The notes: generated from the sequence alone by a model not told the origin. 64,000 nucleotides of DNA from Chiayiivirga sp. (GCA_035703435.1 DASSYF010000016.1:5429-69428); one strand, 5' to 3'; counted from the stretch's first letter, positions 1,784-15,564 are shown. Program-made: numbers and translations.

Positions 1784-2050
1784 CTAGCCTGGGCATAAAT
1801 GCCCGCCGGCGGTGGTCCCGCGCCGATGTTGCCCGGTGATGAAATCAGTGCACAGCAACGCGCGCGCATCGATGCAATGCTTGAGCGATCCCTGTTTGAT
1901 TTCCTTCTCGATTCGATTGAGCAGCATCTGTACCCTCCGACGATTCTCAGCCGTGTCCGGCAGCGCTGTCTGTTCGCGGCAACGCACGCCTTGGAAGAAG
2001 AAGTCGAGATACAGCGTCCTGGTTTCGGGTCGCGCACGGACCTTAGACAT
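1784..2050 (-). pseudogene. Truncated tyrosine integrase: only the N-terminal arm-binding (DUF3596-like) domain
   Basis: ATG at 2050 overlaps the excisionase stop. 'MSKVRARPETRTLYLDFFFQGVRCREQTALPDTAENRRRVQMLLNRIEKEIKQGS' matches this integrase class; similarity ends near 1885 and no catalytic domain follows in the listed ORFs. Confidence 0.75.
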
Positions 2051-2300
2051 GAGCCGATCCGCCGCTCGCCATCGGAATGGCGCCAACTGGGGACAATGCA
2101 TGGTCAGGCGTGCGGGATGCGGAGAACTTTCCGATATCGCGCTGGATCGTCTCCCAAATGAAGAGCAATTTCCGTCCGCCAAATGGGCGGATGTAGTGCA
2201 CGCCCTCCAGCAGCACCGCGTCCTTCAGTCGCGTGCGGATAGTGCGGGTGTCATAGTGGATGCGACTGGCCAATTCATCCGTGGTGAGGTAAGTTTGCAT
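2043..2300 (-). CDS. Excisionase-like DNA-binding protein
   Basis: 'MQTYLTTDELASRIHYDTRTIRTRLKDAVLLEGVHYIRPFGGRKLLFIWE'; MerR/Xis-like HTH directly upstream of the integrase fragment; RBS-like AAGGAA before ATG 2300. Confidence 0.75.
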   Translation of the reverse strand: MQTYLTTDELASRIHYDTRTIRTRLKDAVLLEGVHYIRPFGGRKLLFIWETIQRDIGKFSASRTPDHALSPVGAIPMASGGSAHV

Positions 2301-2433
2301 GGCGAGTTCCTTGTCGTGTGGTCTCAACAGGCGTCGCGTATCAACGACGCACGTTGTCGATAATAGGCGATTGCTGTCGCTTGACAACACCGAACGTCGC
2401 GCATAACCGACATTGTTTATAGTGTGTTCACTA

Positions 2434-2667
2434 ATGATCCGATTCCGCCTAACCGAATTGATCGCAGACAAGGCGTTCAAGGAGCGTAGAGTCGTTGCGT
2501 TGACTGAGGTCGCGGAAGCAACCGGCGTGCATCGGGCAACCTTGTCGAAGATGGCCAACCAGCCCGGCGCAAATATCGGTTCGGAAATCATCGACAAGCT
2601 ATGCAGGTATTTCGGTTGTCAGCCTGGCGAACTGATGATGTATGTCGATGACGAGGGCGTGGGCTGA
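2434..2667 (+). CDS. Xre/Cro-C1 HTH transcriptional regulator
   Basis: 'LTEVAEATGVHRATLSKMAN...IIDKLCRYFGCQPGELM'; divergent from the excisionase. Confidence 0.85.
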   Translation: MIRFRLTELIADKAFKERRVVALTEVAEATGVHRATLSKMANQPGANIGSEIIDKLCRYFGCQPGELMMYVDDEGVG

Positions 2668-2855
2668 TCCCGTTCCGAGCGCGGCACGGATCATCGGTGA
2701 ACTCGGTAGTAGGTCCGTGGACTTGCCGAACCTCAGATCAGCGCAAGTGCATGCCTTGTTCGGTGCGCTTGAGGATGAATTGCTGATGCCATACGCGTGA
2801 CCGACGCCTGCCGTGTCATCGAGTGCGTGGGTCAAATTCGCGTTTTCGTCCAGAT

Positions 2856-2976
2856 CTGTGACACGCAAACCTGTCACAGAACCTGCCACAGACGTTTTTG
2901 CTGCCACAGACGGTCACATCGAGACCGTCTCCGCGAACTGGGGCAGATGCGGCGCTGTGACAGACTCACTGGCACA
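2856..2976. repeat. CTG(T/C)CACAGA repeat cluster, probable integrase arm sites of the left island
   Basis: Direct copies at 2871, 2883, 2901; related or inverted CTGTGACA at 2856 and 2955, CTGGCACA at 2969; next to the att fragment. Confidence 0.55.
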
Positions 2977-3000
2977 AAAAAGCCCGCGACGGAGGCGGGC
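2976..3000 (-). terminator. Rho-independent terminator downstream of the att fragment
   Basis: Minus strand GCCCGC-ctccgtc-GCGGGC-TTTTTT. Confidence 0.7.
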
Positions 3001-3036
3001 ATTCTTACTGCAAGAGTCTGATTTTATTAGTAAATT

Positions 3037-3050
3037 ATGGTGGTATGGGT
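3037..3050 (-). repeat. Displaced att copy of the tRNA-Met 3' end with a 1-bp deletion
   Basis: atggtgg-tatgggt (3037..3050) versus atggtggctatgggt (8776..8790). Confidence 0.75.
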
Positions 3051-3111
3051 TCAACCGAATACATACCGCAAGATGTTGATGAAAAAGCAATTTGAGAATT
3101 GTTGTTTTTCG

Positions 3112-3133
3112 ATCTACTCACAATCCTACTCAC
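3112..3133. repeat. 22-bp direct repeat ATCTACTCACAATCCTACTCAC (left copy; arm-type site)
   Basis: Identical to 8642..8663; about 60 bp inside the left att. Confidence 0.8.
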
Positions 3134-3254
3134 TTTTCGGAAAGTGTCCCCCGCTGGCGGTAGCTCGTTCCTTCAATTGTGGACGCGTGAAGTTAGGGCC
3201 CCGCCTCGGTGTCCGGCCATCGTCGCCAGACTGGTGCATCCCCCCCGCCTACCG

Positions 3255-3794
3255 CTACACGCCGGGAAACCGCGCCTCCATGCTCGCCACGAAGGCGCAC
3301 AGCAGGGCATCGCGCAGTTCAGCTTCACGCCACCATGCGGCGCGCAGTCGGGCAAAGGTCGTGGCGTGCATCCCTTTGGGCTTGGGGCCGTGGCCGTAGT
3401 GGTCTTGTTGCCAGTCCAAGCGCCGTTCGAGCGCCCATGTGCGCCGCCAGCTTCGATCTATCGCATCGCATCGGGTAGACGGATACGCCAGCCGGGCGCA
3501 GGTGCGACAGGCAGGCCAGCCGTGCGCGTAGAGAATCGCGCATCGGCGCTGGCAGCGTGGGCAACGGAACCATGCGCGCAGGCCGCCAAAGCGGCAGGGT
3601 GTCCATTCAAGTGCGATGCGCTGGTGAACGTCGCGCTCGCCATCGGCGAAGCGGTAGCGGTAATCCAGCGTCGCGGCGATGCTGTCCGGCCCGATGCCCT
3701 TGGCGCGCAGGTCGCGGACGTGGATACGCGACACGTCGCAGGTGCGTACATGGGTGGCCTTCCTGCCTGCGCCGTAGCGGGTTCCGCCTTTCAT
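3255..3794 (-). CDS. Hypothetical Cys-rich (zinc ribbon) protein of satellite-like islands
   Basis: 'WFRCPRCQRRCAILY...CRTCARLAYPS' with two CxxC pairs. Confidence 0.75.
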   Translation of the reverse strand: MKGGTRYGAGRKATHVRTCDVSRIHVRDLRAKGIGPDSIAATLDYRYRFADGERDVHQRIALEWTPCRFGGLRAWFRCPRCQRRCAILYAHGWPACRTCARLAYPSTRCDAIDRSWRRTWALERRLDWQQDHYGHGPKPKGMHATTFARLRAAWWREAELRDALLCAFVASMEARFPGV

Positions 3795-3829
3795 CGTGGC
3801 TGCACTGAAATCGAAATCGCTTGGGAAGT

Positions 3830-4216
3830 TCAGCCGTCGCCGGGATGGCTTGTGGCATCCAATCGGCGCAGTTCATCGGCCACGGCTTCGGCGGTGTCAT
3901 GCTCGAAATCCAGCGCGCTCACGCGATGGTGATGCGCCAACCTTTCGGCGACATCGCTTCGGCCTGCCAGCGCATTGACCACAACAACGGCAGGGCGCGG
4001 GGAGTCAAAGCCGGGCTTGCCGATCAGGTAGGACGCAAGGAAGCCGCGCGCGGTCGCGTCGCCAGACTTTGCAGCTTCAACGGTGGCGGTCATGATGGCG
4101 CGCCAATCGTCCAAGGTGACGGTATCAATCAGCGTGCGCATGTAGTCGCCTTCGACACGGCGCGGCGCGCTCGAATCCTTGACGTAGTGCAGGCGCGTGG
4201 CCTTGGGTTTGCTCAT
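3830..4216 (-). CDS. Hypothetical protein, possibly small-terminase-like (DUF5681-like)
   Basis: ATG 4216 with RBS AAGGAA; 'DWRAIMTATVEAAKSGDATARGFLASYLIGKP'. Function is inference only. Confidence 0.6.
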   Translation of the reverse strand: MSKPKATRLHYVKDSSAPRRVEGDYMRTLIDTVTLDDWRAIMTATVEAAKSGDATARGFLASYLIGKPGFDSPRPAVVVVNALAGRSDVAERLAHHHRVSALDFEHDTAEAVADELRRLDATSHPGDG

Positions 4217-4246
4217 GGCGTGGTTCCTTCGTCGGATCAGCACAAG

Positions 4247-4263
4247 TCCGTTACTGCGTAACG
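4247..4263. promoter_or_regulatory. Palindromic operator copy TCCGTTACTGCGTAACG
   Basis: CGTTAC-tgc-GTAACG palindrome, identical to 4525..4541; upstream of the gene at 4216. Confidence 0.65.
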
Positions 4264-4268
4264 TGGCT

Positions 4269-4514
4269 TCACTTGATCGCGTGGTACGCATCCCATGTGG
4301 CCGCGCTCATCTTCACGGTAGCGCGTGCATCCGCGTCAAGGATCAAGCGTTCAAGCATCGCGGCCTGCGTCATGCCCTTGTGCGCAGCGAGCCTGCGTAG
4401 CGCCAAGGCGGCGCGCTGGTCGCAGACGATGTTCAGGCGCGCGCGCGAACCTTCCACGTCGGACAGGTGACGCTGCCGGTAGGCGCGTTGCCGTTGTGCA
4501 TTGGTCTGTGCCAT
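4269..4514 (-). CDS. Small DNA-binding protein (RHH-like)
   Basis: 'MAQTNAQRQRAYRQRH...LRRLAAHKGMTQAAMLERLI'; bracketed by two identical palindromes. Confidence 0.7.
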   Translation of the reverse strand: MAQTNAQRQRAYRQRHLSDVEGSRARLNIVCDQRAALALRRLAAHKGMTQAAMLERLILDADARATVKMSAATWDAYHAIK

Positions 4515-4524
4515 GTGCAGAGAA

Positions 4525-4541
4525 TCCGTTACTGCGTAACG
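4525..4541. promoter_or_regulatory. Palindromic operator copy TCCGTTACTGCGTAACG
   Basis: 10 bp upstream of ATG 4514; identical to 4247..4263. Confidence 0.65.
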
Positions 4542-4582
4542 GAAGAATGGTGCAGATTGGATCATCATGCAAGCCGCAGCGG

Positions 4583-4813
4583 CTACCGTTCGCCACCTTG
4601 CGACGCTGCCCATTCCTGATAGGCGGCGGTTTGCAGTTCGGCCCGCCGATAAGCCCAGCGCCGGAACGGGACTACCAACAAGGTGCATCCGTGGCCATGG
4701 CCGCCGGGCAGGTCGAAGCGTCGCACGTCGCGAGGGCGCAGGTTCCAGCCCGGTGCGCGCTGCGCCAGCTTCAGGGCGTCCAGGACTTCATCGGGTAGGC
4801 GGTTGCGCTTCAT
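4583..4813 (-). CDS. Small hypothetical protein
   Basis: ATG 4813 overlaps the primase stop (ATGA), suggesting translational coupling. Confidence 0.5.
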   Translation of the reverse strand: MKRNRLPDEVLDALKLAQRAPGWNLRPRDVRRFDLPGGHGHGCTLLVVPFRRWAYRRAELQTAAYQEWAASQGGER

Positions 4814-6102
4814 GCGGCTTCCCCTTTCGGCGGGTGCGGTTTCGGCTCGCGCTTGGCGGTCATCGTGCCCTTTACCCCCTGATTCGCCATACACTGTTTA
4901 TCTATGTAGGAGTCTGATTTTCGGTCTTTGCGCAAGGACTGATTTTCAGTCTTAGCGAAACCATGCCGCCAGCGTTCGGCAACGGTGAACAGGTCGGGCT
5001 TGCGGCCTGATTGGGTGACGCGCATTGCAGCAGTGCGGACGATGAAACCGGCATCAATCGCGGCGGCGCGTGCCCTGAAAAAAGTGTCGCGGCTACTGAA
5101 CCCGGCACGGCCCGCCACATCTTCCCACGTCAGCGCGAAGCCGGTTTCGCTGCCATCCCAGCGCCGGAACGCCAACAGCACCACGTCATGCACGGCAGGC
5201 GGCTGCGCCTTCCATTCCGGCGAATCCAACAGGTGATGCGGCAGGGCCACGAAACCATCGGAGCCGTAGCGGCTGGCGTTGGCGGCGATGGCGTCCACTT
5301 CGCGCGCGCATAGCGGCGGCTGGCAGCGTTCGGCATTGATGCGCTGCAATCGCTCGTTCACGGCTGCGCCATCATGGCCGCGCTGGATCAGACCACGCGC
5401 GCAGGAAAACAGCGTGTCGTTGCGTTCGCCTTCCAGGATGGTCTGCGGCAGGGTGCGGCGCTGGCGTGGCGCTACGGACTTTGCAGCGCGTTCTACGGCC
5501 TTGCGTGTGGGCAGCGTCACCACGGTGGCGGATACCGCATCGAATCCGAACGCGGCCCGAACCTGCGCCACGGTGTAGGGCGCGGCATCGCGCAGTTCCA
5601 ACAGGCGCGCGCGGCAGGGTTCGCCCTTGCGGTGGTCGAAGCCGGGAAGGCGCATCACGCGCGGCAGGTCATGCACCTTCGCATCGCCATTGAAGCGCGC
5701 GGCGAGTGCCTTTTGCAGCGGCTTGAAATCGGCGAGCGGGCAATCGGAAACACGCCAGTAGGCATGCCAGCGGCCCGGCGAGCTTTGCACGGTGCAATGC
5801 GGTGCCAGCGGCCCGGCCATCACGGGTTCCAGCGGTGCGCCGTCCAGATCGACAAACAGCGCGCGCACGCTGCGGATGTTCGCAGTCTTGCGCCTGGAGC
5901 CGTCGGTGGCGTTCACGGCGACGAAGATTCCTGCGCCGCGCGTATTCAGATCGGCCAGCGTCGCGGCGTGGTCATCAAGCGTGCCGTGCAGGGTGCGCAC
6001 AAGCGGCGCGCCGGTCTTGGCATCGTCGAAGGTCTGGAAGGTGTGGCGGATGCCGAGCATTCGCAGGAACGCGGCGGCTTCGTCAAGGTCGGGCGCTGTC
6101 AT
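4810..6102 (-). CDS. RepB-type DNA primase/replication protein with PriCT-like and C-terminal HTH-like regions
   Basis: ATG 6102 (ATGA overlap). 'RALFVDLDG', 'VQSSPGRWHAYW', 'VHDLPRVMRLPGFDHRK' (AEP-fold RepB primase); 'EGERNDTLF...CQPPL...EVDAI' (PriCT-like). Confidence 0.85.
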   Translation of the reverse strand: MTAPDLDEAAAFLRMLGIRHTFQTFDDAKTGAPLVRTLHGTLDDHAATLADLNTRGAGIFVAVNATDGSRRKTANIRSVRALFVDLDGAPLEPVMAGPLAPHCTVQSSPGRWHAYWRVSDCPLADFKPLQKALAARFNGDAKVHDLPRVMRLPGFDHRKGEPCRARLLELRDAAPYTVAQVRAAFGFDAVSATVVTLPTRKAVERAAKSVAPRQRRTLPQTILEGERNDTLFSCARGLIQRGHDGAAVNERLQRINAERCQPPLCAREVDAIAANASRYGSDGFVALPHHLLDSPEWKAQPPAVHDVVLLAFRRWDGSETGFALTWEDVAGRAGFSSRDTFFRARAAAIDAGFIVRTAAMRVTQSGRKPDLFTVAERWRHGFAKTENQSLRKDRKSDSYIDKQCMANQGVKGTMTAKREPKPHPPKGEAA

Positions 6103-6302
6103 GCCGTGTTTCTCGCCAACAGGCCGGCGGCGGCGTCCAGAAAATCGGCGGCCACCACGTCGCGCGGGTCGGGTTCGTCGGTGGTCTGTGCGATGGCGTC
6201 CATGTCGGCGCAGGCGGCGCGTATGCGGGCAAGCGCAACCAAGCGGCGGGCATCCGGCAGGTGGTCGGGCGCGGCGCGTGTGGGGCCGCTGGTGGCGTTC
6301 AT
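6099..6302 (-). CDS. Small hypothetical protein
   Basis: ATGA-coupled to alpA upstream and to the primase downstream. Confidence 0.6.
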   Translation of the reverse strand: MNATSGPTRAAPDHLPDARRLVALARIRAACADMDAIAQTTDEPDPRDVVAADFLDAAAGLLARNTA

Positions 6303-6514
6303 GCGGCCTTGCCTTCATCGCGCGCGGCGATACGGGCAGCGATCCAGTCGGAAACTTCCGATTCAACCCATGCCGAGCAAAAGCCGAGCTTGACGGGTTT
6401 CGGAAAGTCGCCAGCGGCGATCAGGCGGTAAAGGTGCGTGCGGGACAGGCCAGAGCGTTGTTTCACGCTTGGCAGGCGTTCGAGTGCAGGCGGATGGTGT
6501 GCGGGGTTTGGCAT
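6299..6514 (-). CDS. alpA: AlpA family transcriptional regulator/excisionase
   Basis: 'LPSVKQRSGLSRTHLYRLIAAGDFPKPVKLG...AWVESEVSDWI'. Confidence 0.92.
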   Translation of the reverse strand: MPNPAHHPPALERLPSVKQRSGLSRTHLYRLIAAGDFPKPVKLGFCSAWVESEVSDWIAARIAARDEGKAA

Positions 6515-6605
6515 CGCTTGGTTCCATGTGCGCCGCTGCGGAATTGCGGTGGCGGCCTTGGGACAGGCGATGCTTACTGTATGCACTGGAAAGCGGGTGA
6601 ATAGC

Positions 6606-6692
6606 GGGACAGGTTCATAAAACTTGCCCCGCCGATGTGTGGAACCTGCCCCCTATCGGAGGAAACCTACCCTACCCCTACCGGGGTAGGTT
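6606..6692. repeat. AAC(C/T)T(G/A)CCC repeat cluster upstream of alpA
   Basis: Direct copies at 6621, 6643, 6664 (21-22 bp period); inverted copies at 6606 and 6683. Confidence 0.55.
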
Positions 6693-7303
6693 CAGCGTGT
6701 CGGGGTTTCCGGTGCGCCGCCACTTGGCTGCCAGTTCGCTACGGTGGCGATGCGTTCGCGTGCGTTATTCGACAAGTTGGGCTTGTTTGCGGCTAGCCAT
6801 GCCAACAGTGCCGCCTTGGGCGTCTTGCCAGCGATGGCTTTCGGGTCGTCGCGCACCGCGTTGAATGCTTCGATTGCGGCGCGCAGTTCATCGGGATAAC
6901 GGACAAGGTCAAGCGTGTTCAATGCTGGCCCGGTGGCCTTGGGCCAGTAGTGTTCAATGCCAACACGTTCGGCCCATTCCGATAGATCGGCAACGCGCAA
7001 AATCGTTTCATCGCACAGGTCTGGCGAATCCGGCTCACAAGGCGTTGGGTAGGTGGCATTGATGTCGTTGAACCAAGACAGCGCACGAACGGGACTGATT
7101 TTCCCGTCTTGCACTGTGCGAATCAGCGCAACATTGATTGCACCGGCTTTTGCTGCCCCTTCCTTGTCCGAATCAATCCGATTCGAGTACGGCAACGGAT
7201 CAAGGCCCGCAAGCAACCGGGATGCCTCACGAATCGAAAGCGATTCAACGATGCTCCAAAGCATCCAATAAGGCTGAAGAAAAGGATCAGGACTGGTCAT
7301 CAT
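6692..7303 (-). CDS. Hypothetical protein downstream of the integrase
   Basis: Clean 203-aa ORF; C-terminal 'TPKAALLAWL...ARERIATVANWQPSGGAPETP' of a type often seen after P4-type integrases. Confidence 0.75.
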   Translation of the reverse strand: MMTSPDPFLQPYWMLWSIVESLSIREASRLLAGLDPLPYSNRIDSDKEGAAKAGAINVALIRTVQDGKISPVRALSWFNDINATYPTPCEPDSPDLCDETILRVADLSEWAERVGIEHYWPKATGPALNTLDLVRYPDELRAAIEAFNAVRDDPKAIAGKTPKAALLAWLAANKPNLSNNARERIATVANWQPSGGAPETPTR

Positions 7304-7391
7304 GCGTACCCTTACGCCCCTGTAGTAGAGCCGCGCCAGCGCCGCAGGGTGGCGGCGTTTTCGCCCCGTCGGGCTAGGCGCGGCGGTTCGG

Positions 7392-8600
7392 TCAACTGGC
7401 CTTGCGGATCGCCACCACGTTTGCGCCGGTGCGCAGGGCGTCCAGATAATCGGCCCATGCCGTCATCATCTTGCGGCGCTCGGGCAGGTGCGCGGTGCGG
7501 TTGTAACTTCGCCCGTTGGGGTCTTTCACGGCATGCGCCAGCTGGTGTTCGATCAGGTCGGGACGGAATCCCAAGACTTCATCAAGCATCGTGCGAGCCG
7601 ATGCGCGGAAGCCGTGGGCAACGGCGGTAGTGCCGTCGATTCCCAGCGTGCGCAGGGCGACGTTTACCGCGTTCTCGGACATGGGCCGCGCTGCACTGCG
7701 CGCGCCGGGAAAGACGTACTCGCTGCGCTTGGTCAGCGGGTGCAGGTCGCGCAGGATATCCATGGCCTGCGATGCGAGCGGGACAACGTGGTCGGTGCGG
7801 GTCTTGGTCACGAAGTAACGCCATTCGCAGGCGTCCCAATCCACGCCATCCCATCGCATCGTGCGCAGTTCGCCGGGCCGGACGAACAGGTACGGGGTCA
7901 GGCGCAAGGCGGCTTGCACCACGGGCGTTCCCTGATAGCCCCACATGGCGCGCAACAGGTCGGCCATCTGTGCCGGTTCGGTCTGTGCCGCAAAGTGCGC
8001 GGTCTGTGGCCGTTCCAGTGCGCCGATCAGGTCGGATGCCGGATTGCGTTCGGCGCGCCCGGTGGCGACGCCATAGCGGAATACGCGGCTTGCCAACCCG
8101 CGCGCCCGGTGTGCGGTTTCCAACACGCCCCGCGCCTCGATCTTGCGCAACGCGGCCAGCAGGACAGGCGCGGTCACGTCGGCAATGGGCAAATCGGCGA
8201 TGCTCGCCATGTCGCGTTCGATCAAGCGGCGCTCGCGCTGCACCGATCCGGCCCCCATGCCTTCGCGTTCGCGCTTGGCGAGCAGTTCCAGCGCCACGGC
8301 TGCGAAGGAATTGGTCGCGCGTTCTGCCTGCGATGCCTTGCGGTCGCGGGCGGCCTGTGCCGGATTGATGCCTTCCGCCAACAGCTTGCGGGCTTCGTCG
8401 CGGCGCTCGCGTGCTTCCCCAAGGCTCACGGTCGGATAGCTGCCCATCGCAAGCATGCTGGCCTTGCCGTCGAAGCGATAGCGGTAGCGCCAGTTCCTGC
8501 CCCCGGCTGGCGTGACTTCAATCGCCAGCCCCTGCGCATCTGCAACACGGTACAGCTTGGGGCGCGGCTTCAGGGCGCGAAGCTTGGTATCGGTCAGCAT
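7392..8600 (-). CDS. int: P4-family tyrosine integrase
   Basis: 'MLTDTKLRALKP...DAQGLAIEV...WRYRYRFDGK...GSYPTVSL'; catalytic 'VRPGELR', 'HGFRASART', 'QLAH', 'Y'; RBS AGGAG before ATG 8600. Confidence 0.95.
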   Translation of the reverse strand: MLTDTKLRALKPRPKLYRVADAQGLAIEVTPAGGRNWRYRYRFDGKASMLAMGSYPTVSLGEARERRDEARKLLAEGINPAQAARDRKASQAERATNSFAAVALELLAKREREGMGAGSVQRERRLIERDMASIADLPIADVTAPVLLAALRKIEARGVLETAHRARGLASRVFRYGVATGRAERNPASDLIGALERPQTAHFAAQTEPAQMADLLRAMWGYQGTPVVQAALRLTPYLFVRPGELRTMRWDGVDWDACEWRYFVTKTRTDHVVPLASQAMDILRDLHPLTKRSEYVFPGARSAARPMSENAVNVALRTLGIDGTTAVAHGFRASARTMLDEVLGFRPDLIEHQLAHAVKDPNGRSYNRTAHLPERRKMMTAWADYLDALRTGANVVAIRKAS

Positions 8601-8664
8601 GTGAGTAGGCTCCTGTGAGTAGATGCCTTGCCGGACAGGCCATCTACTCACAATCCTACTCACA
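8600..8664. promoter_or_regulatory. Four CTACTCACA motifs (two inverted pairs) over the integrase RBS; arm-type sites
   Basis: TGTGAGTAG at 8600 and 8614; CTACTCACA at 8644 and 8656. Confidence 0.7.
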
Positions 8665-8706
8665 ATTTTTCGGGATGCAATGGGACGGCCTGAACCGTCC
8701 AGACAC

Positions 8707-8732
8707 AAAAAAACCCGCTGTTATGCGGGTTT
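8707..8732 (-). terminator. Terminator downstream of tRNA-Met, inside the element
   Basis: Minus strand AAACCCGC-ataaca-GCGGGTTTTTTT. Confidence 0.75.
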
Positions 8733-8776
8733 AGGCGGTTTCTTGGGACTTCGTGGGACGCCCTGAAACGGGCGGA

Positions 8777-8853
8777 TGGTGGCTATGGGTGGACTCGAAC
8801 CACCGACCCCGGCATTATGAGTGCCGTGCTCTAACCGGCTGAGCTACATAGCC
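8777..8853 (-). tRNA. tRNA-Met (CAT, elongator)
   Basis: GGCTATGTAGCTCAGCCGGTTAGAGCACGGCACTCATAATGCCGGGGTCGGTGGTTCGAGTCCACCCATAGCCACCA; 77 nt, encoded CCA, resembles E. coli metT-type tRNA. Confidence 0.95.
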
Positions 8854-8962
8854 ATGCGGAAAATCGCGTGCGGCAGGGTGTTGGCGCCACACGCGGCCGC
8901 GCAGTTTAGCGCGTGACGGCGTGAAGTCCAAGCGTTTTGCGGGAGCGTTTTGCGGGAGTGGC

Positions 8963-9301
8963 TCAGTTCCAGCGATAAATCGTGTAGTAAACCGGCGCAA
9001 CGCTGCCGCGACCATCGTCTTTGTCCAGACGGCCATCGCCATTGGTATCCATCAGGGTGTAGGAAATGCCGTTGGGTGGCGTCACCTTGACCATGTACAG
9101 GCGGCCATCCTGACGGTACTCCTCTACGGTATCGCCGTTGTCGCGCCGACTGATGGTGACGGCGGGCGCTTGTGATGGATCGTCGGTGGCGGTGAGCTTG
9201 TCCGGCAGGGCGTGTTCGCGGGGTGCCGGTTCGTCCTGCGCCAGTGCCGGCGCACTGATCAAAACGCAGCTGCCGAGCAGCAACAGGTGAGCGATGCGCA
9301 T
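8963..9301 (-). CDS. DUF2782 domain exported protein
   Basis: Signal peptide; 'VEEYRQDGRLYMVKVTP..G.SYTLMDTNGDG'. Confidence 0.85.
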   Translation of the reverse strand: MRIAHLLLLGSCVLISAPALAQDEPAPREHALPDKLTATDDPSQAPAVTISRRDNGDTVEEYRQDGRLYMVKVTPPNGISYTLMDTNGDGRLDKDDGRGSVAPVYYTIYRWN

Positions 9302-9387
9302 GGTATGGGCCTCCGGAAGTCGGGCGGCAAGCATAGCGCGGCGGCTACGCTCCACGGCACGCCGCAAGTCGGCCCGTTCAGCCCTTT

Positions 9388-9489
9388 ATTGATCCGGTCC
9401 TTGTTTCGTAGCAATGGAGCGTGCTCCATTGCCTGCCGAGCAAGCTCGGCAGCTACACCAGGTTTGGGCAATCCGGGGACCGGATCAAT
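9388..9489. repeat. REP doublet (GTAG-type) nested in a 13-bp outer inverted repeat, copy 1
   Basis: ATTGATCCGGTCC ... GTAGCAATGGAGCGTGCTCCATTGCCTGCCGAGCAAGCTCGGCAGCTAC ... GGACCGGATCAAT; second copy at 29760..29859. Confidence 0.75.
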
Positions 9490-9612: not shown

Positions 9613-10983
9613 ATGTCCGACGCCCGCATCCTTGTCATCGACGATGAGCCTGACATTCGTGCGGGCTTGACCGACATTCTGGAGGACGAAGGCTACCGCG
9701 TGGTGGCTGCGGCCAACGCCAATGAGGCGCGCGCGCAGTTGGCGCAATCACGCTTCGATGCGGTGCTGCTGGACATTTGGATGCCGGGCACGGATGGCAT
9801 CGCGCTGTTGCGCGAGTGGGTGGCCGCCGGTGAACTGCCGCAGCCGGTGGTGATGATGTCGGGCCACGGCACGGTGGAAACGGCGGTGGAGGCCACGCGA
9901 CTGGGTGCGTATGACTTCATCGAGAAGCCGGTGGCCTTGGCACGGCTGTTGATCGTGCTTGAACGTGCGCTGGAGGCACAGCGCCTGCGTCTGGCCAATC
10001 GCAGTTTGCAACAGCGCGCCGGATCGCTGTACGAGCCGATGGGGAACTCGCCCGCATTCGTGGCGATGCTGGCCCAGCTCGAACGGCTGGCCACGCACGA
10101 TGCCGCCATTCTGCTGCGCGGCGAAACCGGCGTCGGCAAGGAGTCGCTGGCGCGCTGGATGCACGGCAAGAGTGCTCGCCGCGACCGACCGTTCGTGACC
10201 GTGGCGGCGGGTGCCATTCCCGATGATCAGGCCGCGGTCGCGTTGTTCGGCAGCGAGGGTGCCGAGGGCATCTCGGCCGGGCTGCTGGAACAGGCCAACG
10301 GCGGCACCCTGTATCTGGACGAAATTGCCGAACTGGGTGCCGAGGTGCAACTGCGCCTGTCCAGTGCATTGGAACGGCGCCAGATCCTGCGTATCGGTGG
10401 CCGTGTGCCGGCAGCTCTGGATGTGCGCGTGATGGCGGCCAGTTCACGCGATCTGGACGCCGAGCGCGCGGCCGGCAATCTCCGCGATGAATTGTTCTTC
10501 CAACTCAACGTGCTGCCGATCAAGGTGCCCGCTTTACGCGAGCGTGGCGCGGACGTGGACCTTCTGGTGCAGCATTTCGATCGCGAGTATGCCGCACGCG
10601 ACGGCGTGCCGGCGCGGATTTGGCCGAACGACGTATTGGCCCGCCTGCGGCAGCAGCGCTGGCCGGGCAATGTGCGTGAGTTGCGCGCTCTGGCACAGCG
10701 ATTGGGCTTGATGGGGCGGGGAGAAGTCACCCTCGACGAAATCGAACCGGCCTCGGGTGGGCGTTCCGACAGCAGCGCCATGGTGTCTACCGATCACCAT
10801 CCGCTGGACTTGAGCCAGCCGCTGCGCGAGGCGCGCGATGGTTTTGAACGTGCCTACCTGCTTCGGCAGTTGCAGGTTGCCGGTGGCAGCGTGGGCCAAC
10901 TGGCGCAATTGTCGGGCATGGAGCGCACGCATCTGTATCGCAAGCTGCGCGACCTCGGCATCGACATCAAGGGCAACGGCTGA
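9613..10983 (+). CDS. Sigma-54-type (NtrX-like) response regulator: REC-AAA+-Fis HTH
   Basis: 'ILVIDDEPDIR', 'LLDIWMPG', 'GETGVGKE', 'WPGNVREL', 'MERTHLYRKLRDLGI'. Confidence 0.9.
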   Translation: MSDARILVIDDEPDIRAGLTDILEDEGYRVVAAANANEARAQLAQSRFDAVLLDIWMPGTDGIALLREWVAAGELPQPVVMMSGHGTVETAVEATRLGAYDFIEKPVALARLLIVLERALEAQRLRLANRSLQQRAGSLYEPMGNSPAFVAMLAQLERLATHDAAILLRGETGVGKESLARWMHGKSARRDRPFVTVAAGAIPDDQAAVALFGSEGAEGISAGLLEQANGGTLYLDEIAELGAEVQLRLSSALERRQILRIGGRVPAALDVRVMAASSRDLDAERAAGNLRDELFFQLNVLPIKVPALRERGADVDLLVQHFDREYAARDGVPARIWPNDVLARLRQQRWPGNVRELRALAQRLGLMGRGEVTLDEIEPASGGRSDSSAMVSTDHHPLDLSQPLREARDGFERAYLLRQLQVAGGSVGQLAQLSGMERTHLYRKLRDLGIDIKGNG

Positions 10984-11115
10984 TGGAGCCGGCGAAGGAG
11001 AATGGCTGATGACCCGACATCGCGACCCGTTGAGGCGTATCCGCCTGCATCACGCGGCCATCGTATCGGACTTGCGCACGGCAGTGCGGCGGCCGATTGA
11101 GCGTGTGCTTCACCC

Positions 11116-11141
11116 TTCCCGATTCCCGATTCCCGATTCCC
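11116..11141. repeat. TTCCCGA/GGGAATC heptamer tandem repeat
   Basis: ttcccgattcccgattcccgattccc just before trkA; this heptamer type is common in Xanthomonadales. Confidence 0.7.
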
Positions 11142-11148
11142 TGCCCAC

Positions 11149-12528
11149 ATGAAAATCCTCATCCTCGGTGCGGGACAGGTTGGCGCCTCGGTGGCCTCGG
11201 CTTTGACCGGCGAGAACAACGACATCACCGTGATCGACAGCAACCCGCGTCGCCTTGAGGAATTGTCGGAGCGACTGGACCTGCGCACCTTCCTCGGCCA
11301 CGCCTCGCTGCCCAGCGTGCTGGAAGCCGCTGGCGCCAACGATGCGGAACTGATGATTGCCGTCACCAGCAGCGATGAGGTCAATCTGATTGCCTGCCAG
11401 GTGGCCGATGCTCTGTTCAAGACGCCCACCAAGATCGCGCGCGTGCGCCGATCGGAATACTTCGAGTATCCCGAGTTGGTGCAGCGTCGTGGCACCGCCG
11501 TGGATGTGGCGATCAGCCCGGAACAACTGGTGTGTACCCATGTGCAGCGCTTGATCGAATATCCGGGTGCGATGCAGGTGCTGGACTTTGCCCAGGGCAA
11601 GGTGCAGATGGTGGCCGTACGCACCATCGAGGGCGGCATCTTGGTCGGCAAGCAGATCGCGCAAGTGCACGAGCGCCTGCCGCCCGGCATCGACATGCGG
11701 GTGGCTGCGATCTATCGCTGTGGCAAGCCGATCTCGCCCAAGCCAGATACCGAAATCGAAGTCGATGACGAGGTGTTCTTTCTGGTTCAGCAGCGCGATA
11801 TCCGCGCGGTGATGGAGGCCTTGCGTCCCAAGCACAAACCGGTGCGCCGCATCCTCATCGCCGGCGGCGGCAATATCGGGGTTTCGCTGGCCAAGGCGCT
11901 GGAAGAGCGTTATGGGGTAAAACTTCTGGAGCGCAACCGCGAGCGCACCCCGGCGATTGCCGAGTCCTTGCAGAGCACCATCGTGCTGGTGGGTGATTGC
12001 ACCGATGAGGATCTCTTGCGCGAAGAGAACATCGATCAGACCGACATTTTCTGCGCGCTCACCAATGACGATGAATCCAACATCCTGTCGGCGATGTTGG
12101 CCAAGCGTATGGGCTGCCCGCGCGTGATTGCGCTCATCAATCGGCCGGCCTATGCCGAGTTGGTCGAAGGCGACAGCAGCATCGACATCGCCGTCAGTCC
12201 GCAGCAGGTCACCCTCGGTGCGCTGCTGACCTATGTACGGCTCGGCAGCATGGTGCGTGTGCATTCCTTGCGTCGTGGCATGGCGGAAGCCATCGAAGCG
12301 GTTGCGGTGGGCGATGCGCGAACCTCGCGCGTGATCGGGCGGGCGCTGGAGGATCTCGAACTGCCGGCCTCGGCCAACGTGGTCGGTGTGATTCGCGGTG
12401 AGCGATTGCTGATTGCCCATCACGATGTGACGGTGGAGCCGGACGATCACCTCATCGTGTTCCTGCACGACAAGCGTGAACTGGCGAAGCTGGAAGCCCT
12501 GTTCCGCGCCGACGCGACCTGGTTCTGA
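11149..12528 (+). CDS. trkA: Trk potassium uptake NAD-binding subunit
   Basis: Two RCK-N domains 'MKILILGAGQVG' and 'ILIAGGGNIG'; 459 aa. Confidence 0.96.
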   Translation: MKILILGAGQVGASVASALTGENNDITVIDSNPRRLEELSERLDLRTFLGHASLPSVLEAAGANDAELMIAVTSSDEVNLIACQVADALFKTPTKIARVRRSEYFEYPELVQRRGTAVDVAISPEQLVCTHVQRLIEYPGAMQVLDFAQGKVQMVAVRTIEGGILVGKQIAQVHERLPPGIDMRVAAIYRCGKPISPKPDTEIEVDDEVFFLVQQRDIRAVMEALRPKHKPVRRILIAGGGNIGVSLAKALEERYGVKLLERNRERTPAIAESLQSTIVLVGDCTDEDLLREENIDQTDIFCALTNDDESNILSAMLAKRMGCPRVIALINRPAYAELVEGDSSIDIAVSPQQVTLGALLTYVRLGSMVRVHSLRRGMAEAIEAVAVGDARTSRVIGRALEDLELPASANVVGVIRGERLLIAHHDVTVEPDDHLIVFLHDKRELAKLEALFRADATWF

Positions 12529-12531
12529 GTC

Positions 12532-13986
12532 ATGCCGCAGCGCTTCTTGACCATTCAGAAGGTGCTGGGCGCGCTGTTGATGCTGGCATCACTTTTTCCC
12601 GTGCCGCCACTGGCTTTGGCCGTGGTGTTGGGTGAGTCCACCGTCGTGGCCTTTGCCGGCACCTTCCTGATCACCTCCGTGCTCGGCTTGGTCTTGTGGT
12701 GGCCGGTGCGCCGGGTTCGCCACCCCCTGCGTTTGCGCGACGGGTTTCTGATCACCACGGCGGCCTGGACCGTAGCCTCGCTGGTGGCAAGTCTGCCGTT
12801 CATGCTGGCGTCGCCCGCGCTGTCGTTCACCCATGCCGTTTTCGAGTCGGTGTCGGGCCTGAGCACGACCGGTGCGACCAGCATTTCGGGCATCGATGGC
12901 CTGCCGCGCAGCATGTTGTTGTATCGACAATCGCTCAATTTCTACGGTGGCATGGGTATCGTGCTGTTGGCCGTGGCGATCATGCCGATGCTGCGTGTGG
13001 GTGGCATGCAGCTTTTCCGCGCCGAGGCCACCGGCCCGACCAAGGACACCAAGCTCACCCCACGCATTGCCGAAACCGCCAAGGCGCTGTGGAAGGTGTA
13101 TCTGGGCCTCAACATCCTGTGCGCACTCGCGTTCTGGGCGGCAGGCATGAGCCTGTTCGATGCGGTCTGCCATGCGTTGTCCACGGTATCGACGGCCGGT
13201 TTTTCCACCCATGACGCCAGCTTCGGTTACTGGGACAGCCCCATGATCGAGATGGTGGCAACGTGCTTCATGTTGGTGGGCGGCATCAATTTCGGCCTGC
13301 ATTACGTGGCCTGGCGACGCGCCACCACGGCAGCGTATCTGCGTGATACCGAACTGCGCTTCTTCCTGCTGGTGGCCGTGGTGGTCACCGTGATCGTGAC
13401 CGTGGTGCTGTGGCTCAGTGGTGAATACAGCTCCCTGCTGCAGGCTTTCCGCTTTGCCTCGTTCCAGACCGTGGCCAATCTCACCACCACGGGCTACACC
13501 TCGGACGATTTCTCGCTATGGCCTTCGTTCGTGCCGCTGCTGTTGATCCTGGTGGCTTTCGTCGGCGGTTCCAGCGGTTCCACCTCGGGTGGCATGAAGG
13601 TGGCGCGGGTGACGATGGCGGTGCGGCAGAGTTTGCGTGAGGTCAAGCAGCTGGTGCATCCCAAGGGTCAATTCATCGTCAAGATGGCCGGCCGGCGTGT
13701 GCCCGAGCACATCGTTCTGGCGGTGAGCGGGTTTTGCACCTTGTACGTGCTGTGCTTTGCACTGGTGACCGTCGCACTCACCATGACCGGCGTGGACATC
13801 ATCACCGCGTTTGCGGCGGCGGCCTCATCCATCAACAACCTGGGGCCGGGTCTGGGCGAGATTTCGGTGCACTTTGGCACCATGCCGGCCCCGGCGGTGT
13901 GGATTTGCTCGTTCGCCATGATGCTGGGGCGACTGGAAGTGTTCCCGGTGTTGGTGTTGTTCACACCGATGTTCTGGCGTGAATGA
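12532..13986 (+). CDS. trkH: Trk potassium uptake membrane subunit
   Basis: 'FESVSGLSTTGAT', 'TTTGY', 'GSTSGGMK', 'NNLGPG', 'MMLGRLE'. Confidence 0.96.
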   Translation: MPQRFLTIQKVLGALLMLASLFPVPPLALAVVLGESTVVAFAGTFLITSVLGLVLWWPVRRVRHPLRLRDGFLITTAAWTVASLVASLPFMLASPALSFTHAVFESVSGLSTTGATSISGIDGLPRSMLLYRQSLNFYGGMGIVLLAVAIMPMLRVGGMQLFRAEATGPTKDTKLTPRIAETAKALWKVYLGLNILCALAFWAAGMSLFDAVCHALSTVSTAGFSTHDASFGYWDSPMIEMVATCFMLVGGINFGLHYVAWRRATTAAYLRDTELRFFLLVAVVVTVIVTVVLWLSGEYSSLLQAFRFASFQTVANLTTTGYTSDDFSLWPSFVPLLLILVAFVGGSSGSTSGGMKVARVTMAVRQSLREVKQLVHPKGQFIVKMAGRRVPEHIVLAVSGFCTLYVLCFALVTVALTMTGVDIITAFAAAASSINNLGPGLGEISVHFGTMPAPAVWICSFAMMLGRLEVFPVLVLFTPMFWRE

Positions 13987-13995
13987 GGCGCGGGT

Positions 13996-15564
13996 TCAAC
14001 ACCGCCACTGACTGCTCGCCACGCGCACCGACAGGGTGTCGAACAGCGCCCGGGCTTCAGCTTCGGGCAGGTGCCAAAGGTGCAGTCGATGCCCGAGCGG
14101 ATTGGCGCCTGCCGTATCGGCGTGCAGGCGCGCCATGCCGTGTCGACGATCGAAGGGCGACTGCAGCAGGCGCAGCCCCTGAAGTTTGTCGATGCGGGCA
14201 AAGGACAGGCGCCGATCCAGCCATCCGCTACGCCAGATCAGGAGGGTTTCGGTGAGTACAAAGCCGGCCGTAGCCGCCTGCTTGCGCGCCACGAAAATCC
14301 ACACCGGCAGCAGTAGCACGAGCAGAAGACTCGGCAAACCGAACCCGAGCAGCGAGACCGCGCACAGCAGCAGGGTCAGGACACAGGGCGGGACCGCCAG
14401 ACGCCGCCAGGCGCGTGGATGCACGGCCTGGAATACCAGCGGTTCGCGCCAGTCCGGCTCACACTGGCGCACGATGTCATCCAGCGCGGCCGGTGCGGCG
14501 ATGGGCACGAGCGCCGAGAGCGCGGCGTCCTTGCCGTCGCTTCGAAGGGTGGTGGTCTCGACACTCACACTGCGGCGATCGAGCCAGCGCATCAACAGGC
14601 CTTGCCGCAGACTCCAGTGCTGGATGCGCGACAGCGGCACGCTTGCGCGCACCCGCGTAATCAGCCCGCGTTCCACCGACACGCGCTCGTTCGAGCGTTC
14701 GAGGGTGAAGTCGTAGTCGCGCAGCAACACCAGCACGATGTTGATCACGCGCCCCAGCACCCAGGCCGCGATCAACACCACGCCAGCCAGCGCCAGCCAG
14801 ACCAGCCACGACAGATGCATTCCGCCGAGGAAATGACTCATGGATTGCGCCCAGGACTCGGCGTGGTCCTGGATGGACTCCTCGACGAGGTTGAACGCCG
14901 AGCCCATGGCGGCAAGAAAAAGCAGGGTGCCGCGGTCGGAAACGATCCCCAATTTGAGCAGCTCCGAGAGTGGCACCCGCAACAGCACCGTGGCTGCACT
15001 CGTCGCAGGTGACCGAGGCATCGATTCGAGGTGGGAATCGTGCACCGTGGTGGCCGACCCTGCGCCGTGCCGGTGCAACTCGACCAATTGTTCCAGCGCG
15101 CGGGCATCGTCCATCGACAGCACCTGCAGCCGCGCTTCCGGCTCATTGCCGGCGGCGGAGGATTCCAGTTGCACTTCGGCCACATCGAACGCGCGATGCA
15201 GGAGGTTGCGCTTCAAGCTCACCGCTTGGATCCGCGCCAGCGGCACGTGGCGCACCGTGCGTTGCAGCACACCGGTGGCAATCACCAGTTCATCGGCATC
15301 GATGCGAAAGCGCCAGGTGAAGTAACGCAACAGTGCCGCGATGGTCATGGCCGCCACGGCTACCAGTCCCCACCATTGCAAGGTGTCGTTCTCGCCACCC
15401 ACAAACAGCAGGACGATCAGCGGCAGCGCGAAACTTCGCAACTGCGCGAGCAACACGAAAGCCCATGAGAATGGATGCAGGCGGCGCTCGTCACCGGCCC
15501 CGAGCCGAGCCAGCGAGGCATCGGCATCGCGTGCTGCGGGCATCGGATCGCGTTCAGCCGGCAT
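13996..15564 (-). CDS. PH-domain membrane protein (YdbT-like)
   Basis: 'RLHPFSW', repeated bPH_2-like segments; coupled to the upstream short PH gene. Confidence 0.85.
   Translation of the reverse strand: MPAERDPMPAARDADASLARLGAGDERRLHPFSWAFVLLAQLRSFALPLIVLLFVGGENDTLQWWGLVAVAAMTIAALLRYFTWRFRIDADELVIATGVLQRTVRHVPLARIQAVSLKRNLLHRAFDVAEVQLESSAAGNEPEARLQVLSMDDARALEQLVELHRHGAGSATTVHDSHLESMPRSPATSAATVLLRVPLSELLKLGIVSDRGTLLFLAAMGSAFNLVEESIQDHAESWAQSMSHFLGGMHLSWLVWLALAGVVLIAAWVLGRVINIVLVLLRDYDFTLERSNERVSVERGLITRVRASVPLSRIQHWSLRQGLLMRWLDRRSVSVETTTLRSDGKDAALSALVPIAAPAALDDIVRQCEPDWREPLVFQAVHPRAWRRLAVPPCVLTLLLCAVSLLGFGLPSLLLVLLLPVWIFVARKQAATAGFVLTETLLIWRSGWLDRRLSFARIDKLQGLRLLQSPFDRRHGMARLHADTAGANPLGHRLHLWHLPEAEARALFDTLSVRVASSQWRC

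Follow-up and report, generated by a model that had tools for sequence, protein, structure and literature searches.

Within a stretch of 64,000 nucleotides from Chiayiivirga sp. (the window, by which we mean the whole of this stretch) there is a mobile island of 5.7 kb, occupying window positions 3037–8790 with all its genes on the minus strand. It lies at a tRNA-Met gene, the only tRNA gene of the window, and it appears from its sequence to be intact, able to integrate at that gene and to copy itself. Integration is site-specific, the sites are intact, a complete small replicon of plasmid type is present, and the island is naturally present in some genomes and absent from others, with horizontal spread between them. 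We consider it most likely to be an integrative, self-replicating mini-island that depends on a helper for its transfer. It belongs to a family that is undescribed in the literature searched. The markers of this family are a helicase-less replicase combining an archaeo-eukaryotic primase (AEP) domain with a PriCT domain, a 76-aa partner gene and an origin in two parts that lies within the gene for the replicase; an int-alpA RNA leader is often present as well. Coordinates of the individual features are collected in Table 1.

The attachment (att) cores at the two ends of the island match at 14 of 15 positions with one indel, and their local alignment is better than that of 500 out of 500 shuffles. 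Just inside both ends there is a perfect direct repeat of 22 nt (3112–3133 and 8642–8663), with CTACTCACA as its core. Six CTACTCACA sites are found, all at the two ends of the island, and the other 58 kb of the window contain a single site with one mismatch. Since the integrase has an arm-binding domain, these clusters are the arm-type sites expected of it. The element also brings along its own replacement terminator for the tRNA gene, in the form of a hairpin with a T-run just inside the island. The boundary between 3036 and 3037 is confirmed independently by other assemblies. A Logan contig of 5478 bp (L001) is 96% identical from within the tRNA to base 3037, beyond which it runs into unrelated DNA with a terminator hairpin. 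In a biofilm metagenome (X4) a contig joins 3037 directly to 8777, giving the tRNA-Met and the left-hand neighbour of the island without the island itself, and the same kind of empty site, with a divergent spacer of 36 nt, is present in runs X6 and X14. The divergence of L001 and the empty-site contigs indicate that the island is a separate unit, and that genomes with and without it differ exactly from att site to att site. A preliminary description made from the window sequence had proposed an intact island running from 3037 to 8790, attached at tRNA-Met and bounded by att copies and arm repeats. Its ends are exact, and each of these elements was confirmed, ARAGORN and Rfam agreeing on the tRNA gene.

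The island has moved between genomes recently. Near-identical copies (96–99%) lie in at least three different flank contexts. In two JGI metagenome contigs (L002 and L003) the island together with its left-hand neighbour is 97.8% identical to the window, and the chromosomal flank beyond the tRNA is 86% identical; L001 and X17 have the island without the left-hand neighbour, and in L004 it stands beside a divergent one. The cassette at 4122–4588, between the genes for the 76-aa and 128-aa proteins and holding an RHH-like (ribbon-helix-helix) gene, is cleanly replaced by 144 nt in L001, L005, X17, X6 and X16. The contig depth of the island is about that of its flanks in X1–X3, from which we conclude that it is single-copy and quiescent there.

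Nine co-oriented open reading frames (ORFs) fill 3255–8600 of the minus strand, directly 3' of the tRNA-Met, and all are open. Each was searched against Pfam, PHROGs, NCBIfam and PADLOC. The gene order of the preliminary description holds, as do its assignments of an integrase, an AlpA protein and a zinc-ribbon protein. The integrase has an Arm-DNA-bind_3, a Phage_int_M and a Phage_integrase domain, and its gene has 65% DNA identity to that of Stenotrophomonas phage S1. The replicase had been described as a single polypeptide with AEP primase, PriCT and helix-turn-helix (HTH) parts. Primase and PriCT_1 domains are borne out, and the profile matches the solved structure of RSF1010 RepB' with E about 1e-5; the C-terminal HTH is hinted at by a match to HTH_AraC at E 0.13, and this part is unconfirmed. 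No helicase domain was found in the replicase by the family searches.

The replicase is flanked by two small ORFs. The 67-aa ORF is called in all close copies, has tblastn matches of 36–50% in L016, L036, L043 and L046, and has ORFs of 70–72 aa in the same position in L168 and L178. The 76-aa partner matches by tblastn (43–68%) beside the primase in more than 20 loci, and has neither a family in the four collections nor a match in the PDB. The 81-aa protein is possibly an RHH copy-control protein; the earlier RHH assignment finds only sub-threshold matches (PF10723, E 0.015; an NCBIfam RepA regulator, E 4e-4).

At the 3' end of the replicase gene lies a putative replication origin. In each of the 26 non-redundant elements that constitute the relatives examined, two direct repeats lie 25 nt apart and are followed at a fixed distance by ACYCCTAYATAGATARACAG. 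The sequence of the repeats is specific to the element, that of the ACYCCTAYATAGATARACAG motif is invariant, and in the 64 kb of the window there is no further copy of the 19-nt repeats within three mismatches. Each locus has the 15-nt core of the motif once, in every case on the strand of the gene. Some elements translate the motif as Y-I-D-K-Q; in L012, L020, L024, L026 and L170 it lies in another frame and provides the stop codon, and in L013 and L017 it comes after the stop codon and is non-coding. It uses codons ending in A or T, where the G+C content of third codon positions (GC3) of the genome is near 0.8. The motif is thus conserved as DNA and not as protein. The repeats are not the same in two natural variants of the island, whose replicases differ by a cluster of substitutions at residues 336–350 and are about 96% identical in the remainder. 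On the strength of the conservation of repeats and motif and of this co-variation, we regard the region 4894–4960 as a probable origin of iteron type, in which the repeats would be iterons bound by the C-terminal domain of the replicase, beside a fixed site of priming or unwinding.

There are more than 1000 homologues of the replicase, and a profile scan with one genome per species gave 290 loci. In the best 80 of these 290, a full-length replicase together with the 76-aa partner is present in about 25, labelled nearly all as Lysobacterales (formerly Xanthomonadales), Rhodanobacteraceae, Xanthomonas, Rudaea or Dyella; homologous islands defining a core therefore exist in the order to which the preliminary description had pointed. 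In each the layout is a tRNA or transfer-messenger RNA (tmRNA) gene, then the integrase, then the replicase, in one orientation. The targets are tRNAs for Leu, Met, Arg, Asn, Lys, Phe and Ala, and the tmRNA. Where att repeats could be found the relatives are of 4.5–9.2 kb; these sizes come from L010, L011, L019, L036 and, weakly, L025, the att repeats of most relatives being too short or imperfect to be found automatically. The order in annotated relatives is int, one or more variable genes, AlpA or HTH_17, an ORF of 50–72 aa, the replicase, an ORF of 68–86 aa and a few variable genes. We define the family by two markers. One is the co-oriented series of tRNA or tmRNA, P4-type int, helicase-less replicase with RepB_primase and PriCT_1, and 76-aa partner; the other is the pair of direct repeats 25 nt apart with ACYCCTAYATAGATARACAG at the 3' end of the replicase gene. 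The island carries both, the second at window 4894–4960.

The cargo of the annotated relatives includes defence and addiction genes. Between int and alpA there are an MmeI-type restriction-modification enzyme and toxin-antitoxin pairs of HigB/HTH and Gp49/HTH_37 type, and after the replicase a PvuII endonuclease with an N6/N4 methylase (L181 171–2972; L169 7004–8208; L170 5848–6808; L171 11859–14845). A weak Rap1a-like match is also present in the cargo, and no capsid, terminase, relaxase or type IV secretion gene was found in the annotated relatives. In a metagenome-assembled genome of Rudaea sp. (L019) the related island is of 9.2 kb, bounded by a perfect att repeat of 45 bp, and at 10614–14803 of that locus there are two large reverse-strand genes, one of them tail-fibre-like (Peptidase_S74 chaperone domain; phrog_1980 tail fiber, 3.7e-7). 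Isolate hosts among the scanned genomes are Dyella ginsengisoli Gsoil3046, Pseudoxanthomonas sp. Root630, Lysobacter sp. CGMCC 1.16608 and Novilysobacter viscosus.

Between int and alpA lie the int-alpA RNA motif of Rfam, which the preliminary description had overlooked, and a variable gene. The minimum free energy fold of the RNA reproduces the consensus. Of 19 other loci scanned, 12 have the motif as well: ten relatives belonging to the family, L177, and L001, which is a variant of our island. In the island a small hairpin comes next, at 7304–7316; its loop contains AGGG, 13 nt ahead of the ATG of the following gene. In 12 of 12 elements checked (the window and 11 loci) the RNA ends 7–20 nt before the start codon of the next gene, and a small hairpin with an AGG-rich, Shine-Dalgarno-like loop lies between the two. 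The gene behind the RNA encodes 152–313 aa and differs between elements in length and mostly in sequence. Rfam files int-alpA as a small RNA (sRNA). Because its placement before varying genes is fixed, we suggest that the RNA acts in cis, as a leader for translation of a swappable gene, and is not a free, trans-acting sRNA.

In our island the swappable gene encodes 203 aa, and its GC3 of 0.60 is the lowest in the island. The protein has no family in the collections searched and 567 representative homologues, in which the C-terminal 70 aa or so are conserved and the N-termini variable. This C-terminal domain (YPxELRAAIEAF...ERIATVANWQPxGGAPKTP; window 6692–6900) is 60–75% identical in hundreds of proteins of 90–500 aa with unrelated N-termini, and having no Pfam family it counts as an undescribed domain. 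A phage-like element in IMG/VR, with DnaB, Dit-like tail and MuF genes, also has a homologue of this gene, again behind the RNA leader and placed between int and a gene resembling alpA.

The gene for the 128-aa protein had been called terS-like, and this was the only packaging-related cue in the preliminary description. Support for it is absent. There is no match in the four collections even at lenient thresholds, there are five homologues, a PDB profile search gave only chance matches to maltose-binding fusion proteins, and Foldseek found no match using a low-confidence AlphaFold model (predicted local distance difference test, pLDDT, of 62). The 179-aa zinc-ribbon protein is modelled better (pLDDT 84), and CPxC...CRxC is invariant in the alignment of 21 homologues; it has no significant fold match in the PDB or BFVD and no family in the collections. 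The gene is also present in islands of Nitrotoga and Gallionella genomes. Both genes recur in few relatives only. In L169 (10499–11029) and L181 (5436–6005) the gene after a 68-aa partner encodes a protein of 176–189 aa matching phrog_6177 (phage protein), which takes the place of the 128-aa and 179-aa genes of this island.

The island fits no typed satellite family, in keeping with the earlier suggestion of an untyped one, and no ORF has a capsid or packaging match, as the description of it as capsid-less had implied. The closest comparison is with the PICMIs of Vibrionaceae. The PICMI model comprises a tyrosine or serine integrase, AlpA (PF05930 or PF12728) and a primase of DUF3987/DUF5906 type (PMC10803314). 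The island has a tyrosine integrase (PF00589) and AlpA (PF05930 at 1.3e-13); its primase is PF16793 with PF08708 and not DUF3987 (PF13148) or DUF5906 (PF19263), its site is tRNA-Met and not fis, and membership was rejected. PICMIs are nevertheless alike in their size of about 6 kb, the int/alpA/primase core, the small variable cargo region and the lack of capsid-remodelling or packaging genes, and PICMI115 has alpA, small ORF, primase and small ORF in the order found here. In PICMI115, int, alpA and prim suffice for the satellite life cycle without a packaging gene (PMC10803314). The two differ in that PICMIs have a DUF3987/DUF5906 primase and a fis-adjacent site, whereas the island has a RepB'-type AEP with PriCT_1, no helicase, and a tRNA site; in addition the host order is another, and the int-overlapping iolg gene of PICMI is not in the island. 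PICMIs are induced by a virulent helper phage and packaged as concatemers; for the island, the assembled contigs show neither a circular nor a concatemer joint. By analogy, it would work most like a minimal int-alpA-primase satellite.

Other assignments were rejected in turn. For the PICIs (SatelliteFinder Type A or B) the integrase, alpA and primase are present, and no ORF matches a terminase, capsid or Rpp-like protein in Pfam, PHROGs or NCBIfam; the markers of Gram-negative PICIs (terS, rpp/ppi, capsid morphogenesis) are absent from the island. By gene content it would at best be a 'Type C' element, with int, AlpA and primase/replicase only, although Type C is a holding bin and not a family: more than 6000 such int, AlpA and primase elements were left unassigned, as candidates for satellites, for PICIs that have become defective or for mobile elements of another kind (PMC10085698). 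The cfPICIs bring their own genes for capsid, portal, protease and head-tail connector; Pfam and PHROGs showed none of these in the island. A P4-like satellite is rejected because there is no PHROG or Pfam match to psu, delta, sid, eps or the alpha primase-helicase and the replicase lacks a helicase domain. The alpha protein of P4 is a primase-helicase, and the CP4-57 module has the gene order tmRNA/tRNA, intA, variable gene, alpA. The island shares with this CP4-57/P4 integration module the integrase family, AlpA, the variable gene between them and the int-alpA RNA; those elements differ in being larger and having other replication genes, and psu, delta, sid and eps are absent from the island. 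PIMEs and GIsul2 have the int-alpA-replicase core in common with it, and PIMEs excise and replicate on a helper signal and carry defence cargo. They differ in being of about 20 kb, defined by trbJ and trbL (with or without traJ/traI), with RepA/RepC replicases (bioRxiv 10.64898/2026.01.12.698999); none of these genes is in the island, and neither trbJ/trbL nor any other conjugation-related match was found in Pfam, PHROGs or NCBIfam. The catalytic domain of the primase matches RepB' of RSF1010, and direct repeats beside a specific start region resemble iteron-type plasmids. In RSF1010, however, ssi sites are where the primase works, and the helicase and the iteron binding come from two further proteins, RepA and RepC, whereas in the island one polypeptide appears to combine primase and origin binding, with the origin inside its own gene.

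These comparisons suggest the following life cycle. The island would lie silent and single-copy in the chromosome until a signal, probably from a helper element, turned on alpA. AlpA would then drive Int-mediated excision to give a circle of 5.7 kb. The helicase-less AEP-PriCT replicase could bind the two element-specific repeats through its C-terminal domain and prime DNA synthesis at the adjacent invariant motif, host helicase and polymerase finishing the task, and the 76-aa partner and the optional RHH protein may modulate this step. A helper phage would provide the particles in which copies leave the cell, as it does for the PICMI satellites of Vibrio. The int-alpA RNA leader would control translation of the swappable gene behind int, which in relatives is a toxin-antitoxin or restriction gene. 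That the helper is a phage, making the island a mini-satellite, we rate at slightly below an even chance. This reading draws on PICMI115, which shares both the size of some 6 kb and the gene order around the primase, and is favoured by the defence-type cargo, the phage-S1-like integrase and the tail-fibre-like gene in L019. A phage link is also suggested by the phage-like IMG/VR element that carries the 203-aa homologue with its RNA leader.

Several observations weigh against it. Satellite status is inferred from the gene order alone, and the origin is called from conservation only. No packaging or capsid link was detectable for any island gene, and no helper element was identified. A circular junction across 8790/3037 (attP) or a concatemer was absent from the assembled contigs of eight public runs, which is weak evidence because assembled contigs drop rare variants. 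Contigs of 4.4–6.2 kb (L001, L178 and others) were considered as possible circular forms, and they have no terminal overlap; several begin in the tRNA, and so are integrated copies broken at variable flanks. Homologous elements exist and no typed family fits, in line with the preliminary description, and its proposal of an excision-competent element is not matched by a circular form in these contigs. No full-length relative of the replicase occurs in 2.9 million IMG/VR contigs, where the profile matches only the AEP domains of phage primase-helicases, and the island is in none of the runs labelled viral; since contigs enter IMG/VR by their viral hallmark genes, absence there is weak evidence. 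The 17-nt origin motif has five exact matches in IMG/VR, none with an island gene, and these are chance matches. In a comparison of DNA with phages and plasmids, bearing on a shared cos or pac site, the integrase gene alone matched.

The same int-alpA-replicase core is also that of islands moved by conjugation. It defines PIMEs, GIsul2 and related islands, which are induced and mobilised by IncP plasmids (bioRxiv 10.64898/2026.01.12.698999), and the main rival explanation is that the island is an integrative mobilizable element, excised, replicated and then moved by a conjugative plasmid or integrative and conjugative element that recognises an origin of transfer (oriT) in the island, for which the 20-nt motif could serve. 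The fold of the primase, which is that of RepB' from the mobilizable IncQ plasmid RSF1010, and the absence of the island from viral collections are consistent with this. Yet neither the island nor eight Pfam-annotated relatives have a gene for a relaxase, traJ, trbJ, trbL or a coupling protein, no oriT is recognisable in the island, and the motif keeps a constant distance to repeats that are specific to the element and change together with the replicase, which fits a replication origin better than a shared origin of transfer. We think mobilisation by conjugation unlikely. Transfer might alternatively need no helper, the island being a plasmid-like integrative episome with its own excision and replication, spread by chance through generalised transduction, vesicles or transformation and kept for its cargo. 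Everything needed for integration and replication is indeed present and nothing for transfer, and relatives carry addiction and defence cargo (toxin-antitoxin, restriction). However, near-identical copies in several contexts, in hosts with flanks 14% different, and relatives at many different tRNA and tmRNA sites argue for efficient transfer, and this too is improbable in our judgement. It is very improbable that the island is merely what is left of a larger prophage or island, in decay and no longer mobile. In favour of this are the imperfect match of its att repeats and the clear degradation of the left-hand neighbour. Against it, none of the nine ORFs is interrupted and all are conserved, dozens of genomes carry the same compact gene set, the site is known empty and the island is known with other flanks, and variant cassettes have been swapped cleanly.

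Thousands of minimal int-alpA-primase islands are known, most of them without a classification, and it is for the Vibrio PICMIs alone that satellite status has been demonstrated. A second compact family can now be defined by searchable markers (replicase type, partner gene, origin motif and RNA leader), and its named isolate hosts make helper dependence directly testable. The Rfam 'int-alpA sRNA' is suggested to be a translational leader of a variable cargo gene, and the island could serve as a very small model for how a primase recognises an origin. A wider proposition, which we put forward tentatively and consider rather less than even, is that these islands are a new and widespread family of minimalist phage satellites in Lysobacterales and some Betaproteobacteria. 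In terrestrial and wastewater settings they would be what the PICMIs are in the sea, with another replicon as their basis, namely a one-protein helicase-less AEP-PriCT initiator with a two-part origin within its gene, and an RNA leader would gate a hypervariable cargo slot that includes anti-phage genes.

Table 1. Features of the island and its attachment site, in window coordinates.
Feature	Position	Strand	Remarks
attR core ATGGTGGTATGGGT	3037–3050		L001 diverges at 3036/3037; X4 joint 3037 to 8777
Two arm-type sites, far end of island	3112–3134		Part of the perfect 22-nt repeat shared with 8642–8663
Zinc-ribbon protein, 179 aa	3255–3794	-	N-terminal GGxRYGAGRP motif and four invariant cysteines; 22 homologues
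All-helical protein, 128 aa	3830–4216	-	Earlier called 'terS-like'
Possible RHH copy-control protein, 81 aa	4269–4514	-	Sub-threshold matches
Replicase partner, 76 aa	4583–4813	-	ATGA overlap with replicase; motif PGWNNR...YVVPxRRWAYRR
Replicase, 430 aa	4810–6105	-	RepB'-type AEP primase (RepB_primase PF16793), PriCT_1 (PF08708), C-terminal putative DNA-binding domain
Putative origin	4894–4960	-	Two 19-nt direct repeats (4939–4957, 4914–4932) 25 nt apart, then ACTCCTACATAGATAAACAG (4894–4913)
Small ORF, 67 aa	6099–6302	-	Between alpA and primase, overlapping both; no family in Pfam, PHROGs, NCBIfam or PADLOC
AlpA-family regulator/excisionase, 71 aa	6299–6514	-	PF05930; excisionase PHROGs
Variable-slot gene, 203 aa	6692–7303	-	C-terminal ~70 aa a widespread domain without Pfam family
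int-alpA RNA motif (Rfam RF02996)	7317–7384	-	63.1 bits against a gathering score of 35.8
P4/CP4-57-type tyrosine integrase, 402 aa	7392–8600	-	PF13356, PF22022, PF00589; phrog_1 1.6e-57; NF007246 9e-66
Cluster of four CTACTCACA arm-type sites	8600–8664		Two inverted, two direct; one abuts the int start codon
Terminator-like hairpin and T-run	8711–8732	-	Inside island, just downstream of tRNA
attL core ATGGTGGCTATGGGT	8776–8790		Last 15 nt of tRNA; contig joints in other metagenomes begin at 8777
tRNA-Met (CAT)	8777–8853	-	Integration target, 3' end rebuilt by island; ARAGORN; Rfam tRNA 72 bits

The left-hand neighbour of the island, at window 1883–3036, is a second element arranged in tandem with it and degraded; similarity to L002 ends at 1883. 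It has an XRE-type HTH gene (2413–2667, plus strand), an 85-aa Xis-like gene (about 2043–2300, minus strand) and its own terminator (2982–3000), with 12-nt repeats AACCTGCCACAG (2868–2892) near the tRNA-proximal end. Of its integrase, of Arm-DNA-bind_2 type and full length at 447 aa in L002 and L003, just the first 56 codons or so are left. In other metagenomes this element abuts the tRNA-Met directly. On the plus strand at 20–1606, cut by the start of the window, is a gene for a methyl-directed restriction enzyme of Type IV (PADLOC mREase_IV, 9e-137), of which the C-terminal 528 aa are present; as this gene is convergent with the truncated integrase, a defence gene has replaced most of the neighbouring element.

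On the other side, outside the island and some 80 nt upstream of the tRNA-Met, there is a perfect 13-nt tandem repeat, AGCGTTTTGCGGG, in 2.2 copies (8931–8958). Beyond it, the contig depth at 9168–9451 is 6–40 times that of the surrounding DNA in X1–X4 (in X1, 630 against about 15). This stretch covers the 5' part of a gene of the DUF2782 family and the region upstream of it, and the high depth means that it is common to many community members or is repeated.

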